64,000 nucleotides of DNA from Ostreococcus lucimarinus. Lineage: Eukaryota. A program made the position numbers and the translations under genes. Location: NCBI GenBank assembly GCA_000092065.1, contig CP000581.1. One strand, written 5' to 3'. How positions within the stretch are numbered: the stretch's first letter is position 1; every line of letters starts with the position of its first letter. This document shows, in pieces, positions 17,498 through 59,775 of this stretch. The notes beneath the pieces were generated by a model. It was given only the letters and a program-made list of their open reading frames with translations, was not told where the DNA came from and did not search any database.

Positions 17498-19788
17498 TCA
17501 ACGACGCCTGAGCGAGGGCGAGGCGAAGAGCGAAGACGCCGGCGCGTGCACGCGAGAGATGGAGGAAGGCGACGCGGACGCGCGACGGTCCCGCGGACGC
17601 GCGACGTCGGCGACGTCGACGCGCGCGTCGCGAACGGCGGCGCGCGCGGAACGCTTTTCTTCGACGGCGCGGTGCAACTCGTCGAGTTGCGCGCGTTGAC
17701 GCTCGATGACGGCCATGATTCTCGCTTCTTCGTCCTCGCCGAGTTGGATCTCATCCGCGGGGGCGATGGTGTGCTGAAGGCGAGAGGCGGCGGCGAGCGC
17801 CTCGGCGCGACGCGGGAGCGACGCGGCGGAGCGGTTGACGCGGGAGCTCAACGCCTTGAAGTCGTTCAAGAGCTCGATTTCCTCGGCGGACATCGGCGGG
17901 ACGGCGCCGCCGTTGGCGTCGGCGTAATTCTTCAACTGCGCTTGGTGGAGCGTGCGGAAGATTTTGATCAACCGATGCTGCTGCTCCATGTTCTTATTTT
18001 TGACGTCCCGCATGCGCTTTTCCAACTCGGTGTCCGCCCACTGCAAGATTTGTCTCACCGACGTCGCCGCGGCTTGGATGTACTCCTCTTGCGCCTTGAT
18101 CTCCGTCTCCGCCTGCGTCTTTCGTTGGATCAATCCCTCGAATCCGTCGTACTGAACGGGCCACAGACAATCGGGGTTGTTCTCGCCACCTACGGCGTCC
18201 AAGAGCTCGCGCCACTTCCGTTCGCTCACGTTCTGCGGCTTCACGCGCATGCGCGGATCTTTGACGACGTTGTAAAAGTACGCTCGGAATCGGTAGTCAG
18301 GATGGTTCGGGTTGTACGCGTTGACGATCTCTTGCACCTCACGCGTGGGATCGAGCGACGACGGATGTTGTTGCATCTGCTGCTGCATTTGCGGGAATAA
18401 GCCGCTGGGCTGCTGCTGCTGCGTCAACGCTCCGGCGGCGCCGGGCGTCGACGGCGCGAACAATCCACCGCCCGAGGGAACGATGGCGTTCGACGGCGCG
18501 CCGAAAGGGTTCGAAGACGTCGTCGCCGCACTCGAGGCACCGAACAAGCCTCCCGGGGACGATGACGGGGCTGGTGTCGCCGATCCAAACAAACCTCCGC
18601 CCGTTGTACCGGGTGTCGCCGCGCCAAACAAACCGCCCGCGGGACTCGAGGCCGGCGCCGCACCGAACAATCCACCGCTCGTAGTCGCCGGCGTCGCGGC
18701 CGCGCTCGCGCCGAACAAACCACCGCCCGAAGTCGCGGCCGGTGCGCTACTACCAAACAATCCACCGAGCGCGGGCGTCGACGCCGCGGGCGAGGCGCCG
18801 AACAAACCACCACTCGTTGCCCCGGGCGTCGCCGCGGCGGACGACCCGAACAATCCGCCGCTCGTCGTCGTCGGCGCCGCGCCGAACAATCCACCACCCG
18901 CGCTCGACGCCGGCGTCGCCGCCGCGCCGAACAACCCACCGCCCGCGCTCGACGCCGGCGTCGGCGCCGCGCCGAACAACCCACCACCCGCGCTCGACGC
19001 CGGCGTCGCCGCCGCGCCGAACAACCCACCGCCCGCGCTCGACGCCGGCGTCGGCGCCGCGCCGAACAACCCACCGCCCGCGCTCGACGCCGGCGTCGCC
19101 GCCGCGCCGAACAACCCACCGCCCGCGCTCGACGCCGGCGTCGCCGCCGCACTCGCGCCGAACAACCCACCGCCCGAACTCGCAGGCGCCGCGCCGAACA
19201 ACCCACCGCCCGAACTCGCAGGCGCCGCGCCGAACAACCCACCGCCCGAACTCGCAGGCGCCGCGCCGAACAACCCACCACCCGCGCTCGACGCCGGCGT
19301 TGCCGCCGCGCCGAACAACCCACCGCTCGTCGCCGCCGCGCCTCCGAACAACCCGCCGCTCGCGCTCGACGCCGACGCGCCGAGCGCGAGCGTCGGCGCC
19401 GCGCCCCGCGCCCCGAACGACCCACCGCCCGCGCTCGATCCCACCGGCGCGGCGCTCCCGAACAATCCACCGCCCGCGCTCCCCGTCGCCGCGGGCGCCA
19501 ACGCCGGCGCCGCGCCGAACGCGCCCCCGCCCGCGCCCGCGCTCGCGCTCGGCGTCCCGAACACACCGCCGCTCGCGCTCGACGCCGCCGCCGCCGCGCC
19601 GTGCGACCCTCCGCTCGCGCGCGTCGCCGCGCCGCCGCCGAACGCGTGCGCCCCGCTCGCCGCCGCGCCCGTCCCGAGGCCCGTCTCGCGCGCGCTCGCG
19701 CTCGCCGTCGCCGGCGCCGACGCCGTCGTCGGCGTCGCGCCGAACGAAAACCCGCCCGTCGTCGCCGCGCCGCGCGGCGTCGCCGGCG
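17498..19788 (-). CDS. FG-repeat nucleoporin, Nup54/Nup57-like (central channel, Nup62 complex)
   Basis: N-terminal GLFGAA/GGGLFG FG repeats, a Q-rich linker, then NPNHPDYRFRAYFYN…NPDCLWPVQYDGFEGLIQRKTQAETEIKAQEEY, which matches the Nup54 α-helical domain (NPDSEKLIPVPMVGFKELLRRLKVQ…), and a C-terminal coiled coil. Start at MFGAPATPRG (19788); the upstream ORF portion is R-rich noncoding. Confidence 0.7.
18890..19335. repeat. Tandem ~48-51-nt coding repeats (about 8 copies; plus 3×36-nt at ~19150-19270) encoding the FG units LFGAA(A/P)TPASSAGGG
   Basis: Direct reading: gccgcgccgaacaacccaccgcccgcgctcgacgccggcgtcgcc recurs with minor variants; ccgaacaacccaccgcccgaactcgcaggcgccgcg occurs 3×. Confidence 0.8.
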
Positions 19789-19861
19789 CGCCGAACATGC
19801 GACGCGCGCGTGTCCCCGAACGCGCGCCGCGCGCCGAGCGACGCGCGTCGACGTCTGACGC

Positions 19862-19905
19862 TGACGCGATTGGATTCGATTCGATTCGATTCGACGATTC
19901 GATGT
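19862..19905. repeat. (GATTC)n microsatellite in the divergent promoter/5'UTR region upstream of the nucleoporin gene
   Basis: ggattcgattcgattcgattcgacgattcgatgtgattcgatcg. Confidence 0.7.
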
Positions 19906-19952
19906 GATTCGATCGACGCGCGCGCCCTCGGACGCGACACATCGCGACGCCA

Positions 19953-20311
19953 TGGCGCACGCCCCGCGCGCGGGCCTCCCGCGCGTCGTGCACGTCAGCT
20001 GGCGCGTCGACGTCGCGCTGCGCACGTCCGAGGGCGCGAACGCGATGACGCCGAGCGTGATCCTGCGACTCGCGCTCGACGACGGGAGCGACCGGACGTT
20101 CGAGTGCGGACTGGAAAAGTTTCACGAGCTGCGAGAGGCGACGGCGACGATGGTGAACGAGATGGAGTGGGCGAGCCGGGACGCGGCGGCGGTGCGGGAG
20201 ATCGGGGCGCGCGCGCGGGCGAGGTGGGAGCGGACGAGGGCGGGGACGACTTCGGGCGAAGAAGGAATAGCGACGAAACGAAACGCGCGGTGCGGCGGCG
20301 ATGATCATTGA
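19953..20311 (+). CDS. Small COMM-domain-like protein (~119 aa)
   Basis: PRVVHVSWRVDVALRTSEGANAMTPSVILRLALDDGSDRTFECGLEKFHELREATATMVNEMEW resembles the C-terminal COMM domain (DWRVDYvLsSs…v.LkL…FEms.dKF..L..EL..A..lM). There is no room for an N-terminal HN domain, so the call is low confidence. Confidence 0.35.
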
Positions 20312-20328
20312 TGCGAGGACGTCGAACG

Positions 20329-21300
20329 TCAGGCTTTGTAGCGCGCGTCGTCGGCGTAATACTCGGGGAAACCGACGGATTCTTGAAGCCTGGCGAACGT
20401 CGGGAGCGTCTCGTCGCGCGGGTAGCCCTCGAGTTTGATTTCTCTCAGCGCGCGTTCCATCGCGTTGACGCTCACGGCGAGCAGCGACAGGGGGTAGGCG
20501 ACGATGCTGAAGCCCATGTCCTCGAGCTCTTGCGGCGTGCAAATCGGCGTCGAACCGCCGCCTTCGAGCATGTTGGCCATCTTCGGCACGCCCGGGGCGA
20601 CTTTGCAAAACGCTCGCATCTCTTCCTTCGATCGCAGCGCGTCGACGAAGAGCGCGTCCGCGCCGACGTCGGCGAACGCCGCGGCGCGCCACAGCGCCTC
20701 ATCTAAATCCACCGCACTTCGCGAATCACTCCTCGCGAACACCACGATTCCCGATCCATCCTCGTCCCGCGCGTCGCACGCCGCTCGCACGCGCGTCGTC
20801 GCCTCCTCGCGCGATACCACTCGTCTATTCTTCGTGTGCCCGCACGCCTTCGGCGCCACCTGATCCTCTATCAATATACCCGCGAACCCAGCCTTGGCGT
20901 ACCCGCGCACCGTGCGCTTCGCGTTCATCGCGTTCCCGTACCCGTCGTCGCCGTCGCCGACGATTGGGAAACTCGCGCTCGTCGCGTCGTTGCACGTGCG
21001 CCCGACGTCCACCATCTCCCCGTACGAGATCAATCCGGTGTCTGGCAGCGCCAACCTCGACGCGGACACGCAGAATCCCGACATGAACGCGGCGGAGAAC
21101 CCGGCGCGTTCGATCAGGCGCGCGCTCAACGCGTCGTGCGCGCACGGCGCTTGCACGATTCGAGGCGACCGCAGGAGGTCTCGCAAGACTTTGGCGTGCG
21201 GTGCGACGACGGACGCGCCGTCGCTCGCGCGGCATCGCGCGTCGCGCCGAGCGCGATGCGCGACGCGCGACGACGCGCCGGGAGCGGCGGCGAGGGACAT
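20329..21300 (-). CDS. Isocitrate lyase/PEP mutase superfamily enzyme (2-methylisocitrate lyase / carboxyvinyl-carboxyphosphonate phosphorylmutase / petal-death-protein-like), probably organelle-targeted
   Basis: CAHDALSARLIERAGF…IVGDGDDGYGN…GFAGILIEDQVAPKACGH (the K(x)CGH catalytic motif)…EALWRAAAFADVGADALFVDA. N-terminus MSLAAAPGASSRVAHRARRDARCRASDGA looks like a presequence. Confidence 0.7.
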   Translation of the reverse strand: MSLAAAPGASSRVAHRARRDARCRASDGASVVAPHAKVLRDLLRSPRIVQAPCAHDALSARLIERAGFSAAFMSGFCVSASRLALPDTGLISYGEMVDVGRTCNDATSASFPIVGDGDDGYGNAMNAKRTVRGYAKAGFAGILIEDQVAPKACGHTKNRRVVSREEATTRVRAACDARDEDGSGIVVFARSDSRSAVDLDEALWRAAAFADVGADALFVDALRSKEEMRAFCKVAPGVPKMANMLEGGGSTPICTPQELEDMGFSIVAYPLSLLAVSVNAMERALREIKLEGYPRDETLPTFARLQESVGFPEYYADDARYKA

Positions 21301-58379: not shown

Positions 58380-58823
58380 TCAATTCGCCTCGCTCGGCGT
58401 CTTCGTCTTGAGCTGTAGGGCGTGAATCGGGTTATCCATCTCCTCGCTGAGCGCGTCGTAAATCATGCGGTGTCGAAGCACCTGGCGCTTGCCCTCGAAC
58501 GCCTCGCTCACGATCTCCACCTTGAAGTGCGTCTCCGCGCTCGGGTCCCCGCGCGCGGGATTCCCGACGTGCCCGGCGTGCGCCGCGCTCTCGTCGATGA
58601 CGACGAGGGACGCGGGCGCGAGCGCGCGCGTGAGTTTTTGAGTGATGGCGGTGTACACGGGACGACCGACGTTCATCTTCGCCCCGGCGGTCTCTTGACA
58701 CGCGGAGCCGTCGGGTTGGACGTCGACGATCGTGGTCGTTCGACGCGCGCGGCTCGGAGCGCGGGCGCGGCCGGAAAGAAGCGGTGCGCGCGCGTGAACG
58801 ATGAGGGTCGCGGCGACGGGCAT
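58380..58823 (-). CDS. BolA-family protein (BolA1-like), with presequence
   Basis: LVVIDESAAHAGHVGN…ETHFKVEIVSEAFEGKRQVLRHRMIYDALSEEMDNPIHALQLKTKTPSE, the BolA helix-turn-helix signature. Confidence 0.7.
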   Translation of the reverse strand: MPVAATLIVHARAPLLSGRARAPSRARRTTTIVDVQPDGSACQETAGAKMNVGRPVYTAITQKLTRALAPASLVVIDESAAHAGHVGNPARGDPSAETHFKVEIVSEAFEGKRQVLRHRMIYDALSEEMDNPIHALQLKTKTPSEAN

Positions 58824-58997
58824 GAGCCGGCGAGGCGCGAAGTGCGGTGGAGGGCGCGCGAACGACCGCGCTCGCGGTCGCGGTCGCTGAGCTCGATTTC
58901 GCGTGGATGGCGTGGAAATGCATGGAAGTAGGCGTCGTATTTAAAGCGCGACGCTCGATCGCGCGCGTGATGGTCGTCAGAGCATCGACCGAAGCGG

Positions 58998-59703
58998 TCA
59001 AGCCTTCGTGTACATCTTCGCCAGGTCGTCGAGCGAGTGATCGAGATGGCAGCAAAAGTCGGTGTCGACGTTTTGTTTGCACTTCATCGCGTTTTGCATC
59101 ACCAAGTGGTGAATCTTGAGCGCGTCGACGTAATCCTCCGGCGACATCTCCGCCGCCTTGACGCGTTGGCAGAGACAATATTCGCCGATGAGGGCGATGA
59201 TCTTCCCGCAGTGTTCTTCCTTGGTCATCACCCACCGCATGGACTGGTTCAACTTCACCGGATCCGACAACCCACCGGCGAGCTCATTGATCTGCGTCAT
59301 GGCTTTTCGAATCGTCGCCGACATTTCGCGAAGACTCGCCACCATGGCGGGATCGTCGAAAATCCCGCACGGCACTTGACAGTGCCCACCGCGCACGCGC
59401 ACGCGCGCGTGCACGGTAGATTCGTTTTCGAGCGCCGCGTCGTCCCGCAGCACCGCGCCGCGCGCGTCGGTTAAGTAATCGAACGCCGCGCCTCGGCGTC
59501 GCAGCGCCGCGCGCGCCGACCCCGCCGTCGCCGCGTCCCTAACCACCAGCGTCTTTCCCTCCACTGCGCGCGCGCGCGTTCGAGCGTTTCGTCAGTCGCG
59601 CGCTCGCCGTCGTCGTTCGCGCCTTCGCCACGCGTCCCGCGCCGACGCGTCGATCGCGCGCGCGCGGCGCGCGACGCGCACCCGTGCGCGCGAAGATTTG
59701 CAT
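58998..59703 (-). CDS. sodN: Ubiquitin-like pro-domain fused to nickel superoxide dismutase (NiSOD, SodN), 2 exons: 59703..59682 and 59563..58998, intron 59564..59681
   Basis: Exon 1 reads ATG CAA ATC TTC GCG CGC ACG G|gtgcgc (MQIFART, phase 1). Acceptor …gcgcgcag| precedes TG GAG GGA AAG…, giving MQIFARTVEGKTLVVRD…LRDDAALENESTVHARVRVRGG. This is a degenerate ubiquitin (MQIFVKTLTGKTITLEV…[27 protein letters not shown]) ending in the RGG cleavage site. It is followed immediately by HCQVPCGIFDDP…, the NiSOD Ni-hook (HCDLPCGVYDPA), and the NiSOD four-helix bundle. The track ORF's 'M' is a GTG. Confidence 0.75.
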
Positions 59704-59775
59704 GTCGAGTCGATTCGTCGTAAAGTGACGCGACTTCGTCGTCGCGACTTCGACGCGCGTCCGAGGCGCGCGCGC

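Follow-up and report, generated by a model that had tools for sequence, protein, structure and literature searches.

A two-exon nickel superoxide dismutase gene of Ostreococcus lucimarinus with a decayed, ubiquitin-derived N-terminal domain

A two-exon gene and its polyadenylated transcript

The 64,000-nt stretch of DNA analysed here (the window) carries on its minus strand a gene in which a very short first exon is spliced to a second one that encodes the rest of a ubiquitin-derived domain and, immediately behind it, a nickel superoxide dismutase (NiSOD; Table 1). The minus strand reads ATG at 59703, then CAA ATC TTC GCG CGC ACG G, then GTGCGC, and joining 59682 to 59563 yields an in-frame coding sequence of 588 nt for 195 aa, whose product runs MQIFARTVEGKT...HARVRVRGG and continues as HCQVPCGIFDDP...; exon 1 codes for the first beta-strand of the ubiquitin-derived domain. 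A first-pass annotation of the window, made from the letters alone, had reconstructed just this seven-codon exon, MQIFART, with a phase-1 splice, and both its coordinates and its sequence agree with the model given here and with the identical RefSeq model. The spliced product equals XP_001415976.1 / ABO94268.1 (UniRef100_A4RRW7) of Ostreococcus lucimarinus CCE9901 at every residue, which answers the comparison with Ostreococcus proteins proposed at that time and, since these entries have the same 195 aa, implies the same two-exon model behind them. Judged by this identity, the window gene is the nuclear sodN of O. lucimarinus or a near-identical strain, and the guess of the first-pass annotation, an Ostreococcus-type prasinophyte, was correct.

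The gene is therefore one already known, through the identical RefSeq model and through a published fusion family that includes the genus Ostreococcus; XP_001415976.1 itself is named 'predicted protein', with no function given, and Pfam marks Sod_Ni alone in it. Fusions of ubiquitin to NiSOD are present in Ostreococcus and Micromonas, and their distribution has been surveyed (PMC6332867). The text of that survey credits Palenik 2007, Dupont 2008 and Schmidt 2009 with the first mention of them, in O. tauri and O. lucimarinus; its supplement contains nothing on Ostreococcus.

Table 1. Features of the sodN locus, in window coordinates
Feature	Coordinates	Strand	Details
Exon 1	59682..59703	-	22 nt: seven codons, start codon included, plus 1 nt (MQIFART + G); ATGCAAATCTTCGCGCGCACGG
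Spliceosomal intron	59564..59681	-	118 nt, phase 1, GT-AG, GTGCGC...CGCAG, 79% GC; interrupts codon 8
Candidate branch site ACTGAC	59591..59596	-	branch A ~28 nt upstream of the acceptor; motif match alone
Exon 2	58998..59563	-	TGA stop included
Ubiquitin-derived part of exon 2	59385..59563	-	residues 8-67, ending ...HARVRVRGG
Ni-hook HCQVPCG	59364..59384	-	residues 68-74, from sequence; Pfam Sod_Ni match begins at residue 67
Predicted processing site	between 59385 (Gly67) and 59384 (His68)	-	
Mature NiSOD domain	59001..59384	-	128 aa, four-helix bundle (predicted)
Stop codon TGA	58998..59000	-	
3' UTR	58915..58997	-	83 nt, from the NiSOD stop codon to the poly(A) addition site; from contig L005

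Splicing of this transcript is documented by a public contig, L005 (Logan assembly SRR28369184_79985, run SRR28369184), which holds the 195-aa ORF without interruption. It aligns to the window, with a single mismatch, between 61203 and exactly 59682, resumes at 59563 and tracks the genome to 58915, where it gives way to a terminal A22 that has no counterpart in the genome. The exact 80-nt sequence across the junction 59682^59563 occurs in L005 and the unspliced sequence is missing from it, so that a transcript joining these two positions, named beforehand as the check on the gene model, does exist. Because the A22 is non-genomic and the intron is missing, we infer that the SRR28369184 contig derives from polyadenylated mRNA; the gene is thus transcribed from the minus strand, and its transcript is spliced and polyadenylated. 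The segment removed has GT-AG boundaries and is absent from a poly(A)-tailed contig, as expected of a spliceosomal intron, and the GT(gcgc)…AG intron that had been postulated at 59564..59681 is indeed spliced out. We also considered L005 as genomic DNA of an intron-less strain and rejected this reading, because the poly(A) tail is non-templated and because the contig, which spans two divergent genes, ends on either side just past a stop codon of one of them.

The DNA around the junction agrees with the need for splicing. In the frame of exon 2 there is a TGA at 59594-59592 and no ATG ahead of the Ni-hook, and reading through from the ATG of exon 1 into the intron meets a stop after 54 aa, so that the gene would be non-functional if unspliced. 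The GC content of the intron is 79%, against 61% in exon 2 and 61% across the whole window.

The gene lies in a compact neighbourhood. Only 72 nt (59704..59775) separate the NiSOD ATG at 59703 on the minus strand from that of a divergent PPR gene at ~59776 on the plus strand. L005 spans NiSOD and the entire divergent PPR gene, so that either the 5' ends of the two transcripts overlap or the assembly bridged them; the arrangement suggests a bidirectional promoter of extreme compactness. On the other side, the NiSOD poly(A) site is followed after ~90 nt by the start of a BolA-family gene (58380..58823, minus strand). The order PPR, ubiquitin-NiSOD, BolA, short-chain dehydrogenase is found with all four genes at five related loci (L001-L004 and L012) and, with partial coverage by the contigs, at four others (L011 and L013-L015). 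Around L016 and L018, two loci whose NiSOD is fused to canonical ubiquitin, this order is not conserved. Elsewhere in the window, a 45-nt tandem repeat of ~10.6 copies at 18795..19362, encoding GLFG repeats of the GGLFGAAPTPASSAG type, lies within a minus-strand ORF (17498..20692) and accounts for the 73% GC peak at 18-20 kb. The C-terminal part of this ORF (…NPNHPDYRFRAYFYNVV…) presumably places it with the FG-nucleoporins of the Nup54/Nup57 type, which it resembles.

The first exon in related loci and database entries

The split of the gene after 22 nt is shared well beyond the window. In a sister lineage represented by genomic loci L001-L004, whose protein is 83% identical to the window protein, ATGCAAATCTTCGCTCGCACCG precedes an intron of 213 nt (GTACGC...CGCAG) that occupies the same position, as read in L001, and the spliced form, MQIFARTVEGTT..., is present in five short contigs from five assemblies (L006-L010). 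Three more distant lineages have an exon 1 of MQIFTRT with an intron of 295 nt (L011), MMIFARA with 204 nt (L012) and MQIFART with 199 nt (L014), so that the orthologous introns at this position in the relatives measure 199-295 nt. The five introns of the window, L001, L011, L012 and L014 all have a GTRCG donor and a CAG acceptor, and in each a motif resembling ACTGAC (in L014, ACTCAC) precedes the acceptor by 25-35 nt. The canonical-ubiquitin genes L016 and L018 (MQIFVKT|LTGKTITLEV...) are split at the same place and in phase 1, by introns of 261 and 259 nt, respectively, both with a GTGCGT donor. With the window, the 22-nt exon is therefore kept in seven lineages (the others being L001, L011, L012, L014, L016 and L018), and the site that it shares with canonical-ubiquitin genes indicates that the intron position predates the decay of ubiquitin described below. 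This comparison covers loci with enough upstream DNA, which leaves L015 (the P0006 lineage) outside it. The strain variants P0143 and P0145 differ from the window in the register between intron and exon 2, indicating that intron length varies between strains by amounts not divisible by three, as expected of non-coding sequence.

These observations bear on the simplest competing gene model, in which there is no intron, translation starts at GTG 59564 (188 aa, VEGKT...) or another upstream codon, and the MQIF motif is coincidental. Database models of this kind exist, two of 188 aa (P0001 and P0135) and one of 201 aa that starts at an ATG within the sister-clade intron (P0003). We nevertheless give this model almost no credence, because the junction 59682^59563 is present in a poly(A)-tailed contig and five sister-clade contigs are likewise spliced, because the 22-nt exon is kept in seven lineages that include canonical-ubiquitin genes, because exon 2 is preceded by an in-frame TGA and offers no ATG ahead of the Ni-hook, and because the strain variants differ in length within the intron in a way that would shift the frame. 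The transcript contigs, in particular, refute translation from GTG 59564 with the MQIF exon left out.

Public entries for the protein (among them P0001, P0135, P0136, P0003, P0011, P0013, P0143 and P0145) are for the most part gene calls in prokaryotic style. The mis-started ones take as their first codon the acceptor GTG, an internal GTG or an ATG within the intron, with the result that the MQIF exon is missing or the intron is translated. Some entries are named 'small subunit ribosomal protein S27Ae', presumably owing to the faint ubiquitin signal. The practical meaning is that prokaryotic gene callers mis-start most metagenomic entries and so hide the ubiquitin exon.

A constrained enzyme domain behind a decayed ubiquitin

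The C-terminal domain is readily recognised. In the spliced product, the Pfam profile PF09055 (Sod_Ni) matches residues 67-194 with an E value of 1.2e-33 and 116.8 bits (cutoff 25), over profile positions 5-125 of 127, which satisfies the profile check proposed for it by the first-pass annotation. The residues H68, C69, P72, C73 and G74 of the precursor are invariant in an alignment of 63 sequences. AlphaFold2 predicts a four-helix bundle with helices at 78-105, 109-135, 149-171 and 176-192 and pLDDT mostly above 90, and Foldseek relates the model to the Streptomyces NiSOD 3g4x at a TM score of 0.66; this is how the link to the fold was made, as no NiSOD chain was among the 60 matches listed by a phmmer search of PDB sequences. 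The ...RVRGG end of the ubiquitin-like part abuts HCQVPCG in one spliced, transcript-supported coding sequence, and the direct adjacency claimed earlier can be read both in mRNA-derived contigs and in the identical RefSeq protein. The segment RGG-HCQVPCG has a pLDDT below 50. The Ni-hook of NiSOD becomes ordered only upon metal binding, and the low value in the model fits a flexible ubiquitin tail followed by a hook that is not yet ordered. At mature position 9 (residue 76, 59358..59360) the enzyme has Phe (HCQVPCGIF), as do all 63 eukaryotic homologues in the alignment, whereas Streptomyces NiSOD has Tyr9; 3g4x is the Y9F mutant of the latter.

Recognition of the N-terminal domain requires more sensitive comparison. 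The search with PF00240 that had been proposed for the spliced product does not find a ubiquitin domain even at E<=10, and the N-termini of the window protein, L001 and L011 likewise give no match at that threshold; L014 and L012 give sub-threshold matches of 18 and 16 bits (cutoff 25.4). Because the Pfam profile misses the domain, homology has to be argued from profile-profile comparison and from intermediate relatives. A profile of five sequences aligned to ubiquitin by hhalign gives a probability of 97.5% and an E value of 6e-12, with columns 1-73 set against 1-76, and BLASTP against ubiquitin gives 33% identity at an E value of 1e-9. In a phmmer search of the PDB, single-chain ubiquitins are matched weakly (E 0.1-0.6), the better E values of polyubiquitins being sums over repeats. 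The predicted fold of the domain is beta-beta-alpha-beta...beta, a beta-grasp, with pLDDT 77-90, and Foldseek returns ubiquitin structures (1ubq and others) at a TM score of ~0.70 and an rmsd of 2-3 A; the input alignment consists mostly of canonical ubiquitin fusions, so that this model does not support homology independently. From these comparisons of sequences and profiles, the derivation of residues 1-67 from ubiquitin is clear, and the description of the domain as a degenerate ubiquitin stands on the hhalign result, the intermediates and the predicted beta-grasp. The estimate that about a third of ubiquitin positions are conserved is likewise borne out, with 24-26 of 76 (about 32%).

What has been kept and what has been lost is informative. 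In a residue mapping over five lineages (ubiquitin numbering), R72, G75 and G76 never vary, whereas H68 is retained for the most part. In the window protein, by comparison, R42 is replaced by T, I44 by A, V70 by R, K48 by A and K63 by N, the tail is VRVRGG against the LRLRGG of ubiquitin, and K11 is the only lysine left in the ubiquitin-like part; the sister clade has none. The set that characterises a functional ubiquitin (the L8/I44/V70 patch, R42 and R72 for E1, K48 and K63 for chains, and the tail LRLRGG) is thus no longer present as a set, with R72, G75 and G76 kept. With patch, lysines and R42 lost, a released domain is unlikely to act as ubiquitin, and although ubiquitin-derived, this domain should not be filed as ubiquitin.

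The loss of lysine is confined to this half of the protein. Across the five lineages the ubiquitin-like part has 0-2 Lys and 10-12 Arg and the NiSOD part 9-10 Lys and 4 Arg. The depletion could reflect a GC-driven drift from Lys to Arg under relaxed constraint or selection against lysines that can be ubiquitylated; on the first of these, we note that the NiSOD part keeps Lys over Arg and yet is far more constrained. In four comparisons between close lineages (Nei-Gojobori), dN/dS is 0.27-0.40 for the ubiquitin-like part and 0.07-0.20 for the NiSOD part, rough values given a dS of ~0.9-1.5 that is near saturation. Taken at face value, these ratios indicate that the ubiquitin-like domain is relaxed, not neutral. 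The NiSOD domain of the window clade is 63-70% identical to that of L016, as compared with 69-71% for diatoms and cryptophytes, whereas the ubiquitin part of the window clade is 24-36% identical to ubiquitin and that of diatoms and cryptophytes 93-96%. Since the NiSOD domains are about equally close to L016 and only the ubiquitin part has decayed, the decay is specific to the ubiquitin moiety of this lineage.

The persistence of purifying selection, together with the retained RGG or GG at the C-terminus, could be taken to mean that the released domain can still be conjugated to targets, be it as ubiquitin or as a novel ubiquitin-like modifier, and that the gene is bifunctional in the manner of ubiquitin-ribosomal fusions. 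We regard this as very unlikely: not only are R42, I44, V70, K48 and K63 replaced, but R74 is lost in three of the five lineages, the ubiquitin part ranges from 67 to 78 aa in length among close lineages, and it evolves 2-4 times faster than the NiSOD part.

Proposed processing of the precursor

Three known systems frame the possible maturation of this protein. The canonical ubiquitin-NiSOD fusions of marine algae (Guillardia theta P0067, named 'ubiquitin-superoxide dismutase fusion protein'; the diatom UBQ-NiSOD of PMC4460010; PMC6332867) have the same order of Ub...RGG followed by HCQVPCG, their NiSOD domain is 63-71% identical, and L016 and L018 also share exon 1 and the phase-1 intron. Their ubiquitin part, however, is 93-96% identical to ubiquitin and detected by PF00240, whereas that of the window fusion is ~32% identical, 9 residues shorter, nearly free of lysine and undetected by Pfam. 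In Ub-eL40, Ub-eS31 and polyubiquitin, an N-terminal ubiquitin is removed by deubiquitinases and the partner is released with a defined N-terminus, which is the same logic; in those genes ubiquitin is almost invariant because it feeds the cellular pool, whereas in the window gene it has decayed. Bacterial SodN (Streptomyces, marine cyanobacteria) resembles the window protein in its PF09055 domain, its Ni-hook and an N-terminal extension that has to be removed for His1 to become the first residue. The bacterial extension, in contrast, is a short pro-peptide unrelated to ubiquitin, and it is served by SodX, a dedicated signal-peptidase-like enzyme usually encoded beside sodN, whereas the window sodN has PPR and BolA genes as its neighbours and no peptidase gene flanking it.

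We propose, at a probability of about 80%, that the sodN mRNA is translated into a 195-aa precursor of decayed ubiquitin and NiSOD, that a protease of the UCH or USP type cuts it after Gly67, and that the ubiquitin part is a cleavable pro-domain. By analogy with the precursors of ubiquitin-ribosomal proteins and of polyubiquitin, the cut would free the alpha-amino group of His68, a nickel ligand, and the metal would then be held by the amine of His68, the amide of Cys69 and the thiolates of Cys69 and Cys73, as in characterised NiSOD. A protease of the ubiquitin type would here take the place of the bacterial SodX peptidase, and the ubiquitin part, supplying no usable ubiquitin, would remain only as a pro-domain that folds and can be cut off, with R72 and G75-G76 retained. 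Cleavage of the deubiquitinase type as the step that activates the Ni-hook is an earlier proposal for this fusion family (PMC4460010), and the mechanism has thus been put forward before (Groussman 2015; Sibbald 2019). The suggestion of the first-pass annotation that the ubiquitin part is a mere processing tag fits the loss of I44, V70, R42, K48 and K63 with R72-x-x-GG kept, and it fits a dN/dS that is raised and still below 1.

The composition of the domain allows a different reading of the same cleavage. With 14 Ala, 11 Arg and 1 Lys in the 67 residues of the window protein, an Arg at position -3 of the cleavage site and the recognition patch of ubiquitin gone, the N-terminal part might have been re-used as an organelle targeting peptide, in which case it would be cut off not by a deubiquitinase but by the processing peptidase of the stroma or the mitochondrion or by a protease of some other kind. 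A presequence, however, would not be expected to carry 8 acidic residues and a predicted beta-grasp (pLDDT 77-90), the hydrophobic core pattern of ubiquitin is kept, and dN/dS is below 1. The -3 Arg, moreover, varies among relatives (VLGG in L011, LIGG in L012 and L014), in contrast to the invariant R72 and GG, and we consider a targeting peptide improbable.

It might also be supposed that the domain is never removed and that the protein acts with both its domains, whether as a NiSOD relative that is inactive or regulatory or as an enzyme whose metal chemistry differs. NiSOD chemistry needs the free N-terminal amine of His1, as the structures of the Streptomyces enzyme make plain. In all 63 aligned homologues an invariant Ni-hook follows directly after GG, and the NiSOD part is under strong constraint (dN/dS 0.07-0.2), which argues for an active enzyme, so that a precursor that stays uncleaved seems to us extremely improbable. 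For the cleaved precursor that we favour, general deubiquitinases could recognise a domain that lacks the I44/V70 patch and R42 less well, which makes the identity of the responsible protease uncertain.

What is new here is minor: the ubiquitin tag has decayed and become depleted of lysine specifically in this lineage, and the 22-nt exon is both ancient and conserved. The text of PMC4460010 and of PMC6332867 contains no remark on the decay and lysine loss of the tag or on the 22-nt first exon. To the published family the present analysis adds direct transcript support for the mini-exon and its intron in O. lucimarinus and its sister clade.

We speculate, as a tentative idea that may well prove wrong, that the ubiquitin of the Ostreococcus-type fusion escaped the constraint, or the concerted evolution, that keeps it near-invariant in every other alga, and that it is now a dedicated, non-recyclable and almost lysine-free pro-domain. 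The loss of lysines might then have been selected, sparing the precursor from ubiquitylation and from the ubiquitin-fusion-degradation route, and the loss of the I44/V70 patch might have been accompanied by a specialised, co-evolved protease for NiSOD maturation. If this were true, the precursor would be a natural minimal-ubiquitin substrate, revealing what a deubiquitinase needs, namely R72 and GG on a beta-grasp. More broadly, the fusion concerns how eukaryotic algae handle NiSOD maturation without the bacterial SodX, a point already published, and it bears on the nickel and iron economy of marine phytoplankton.
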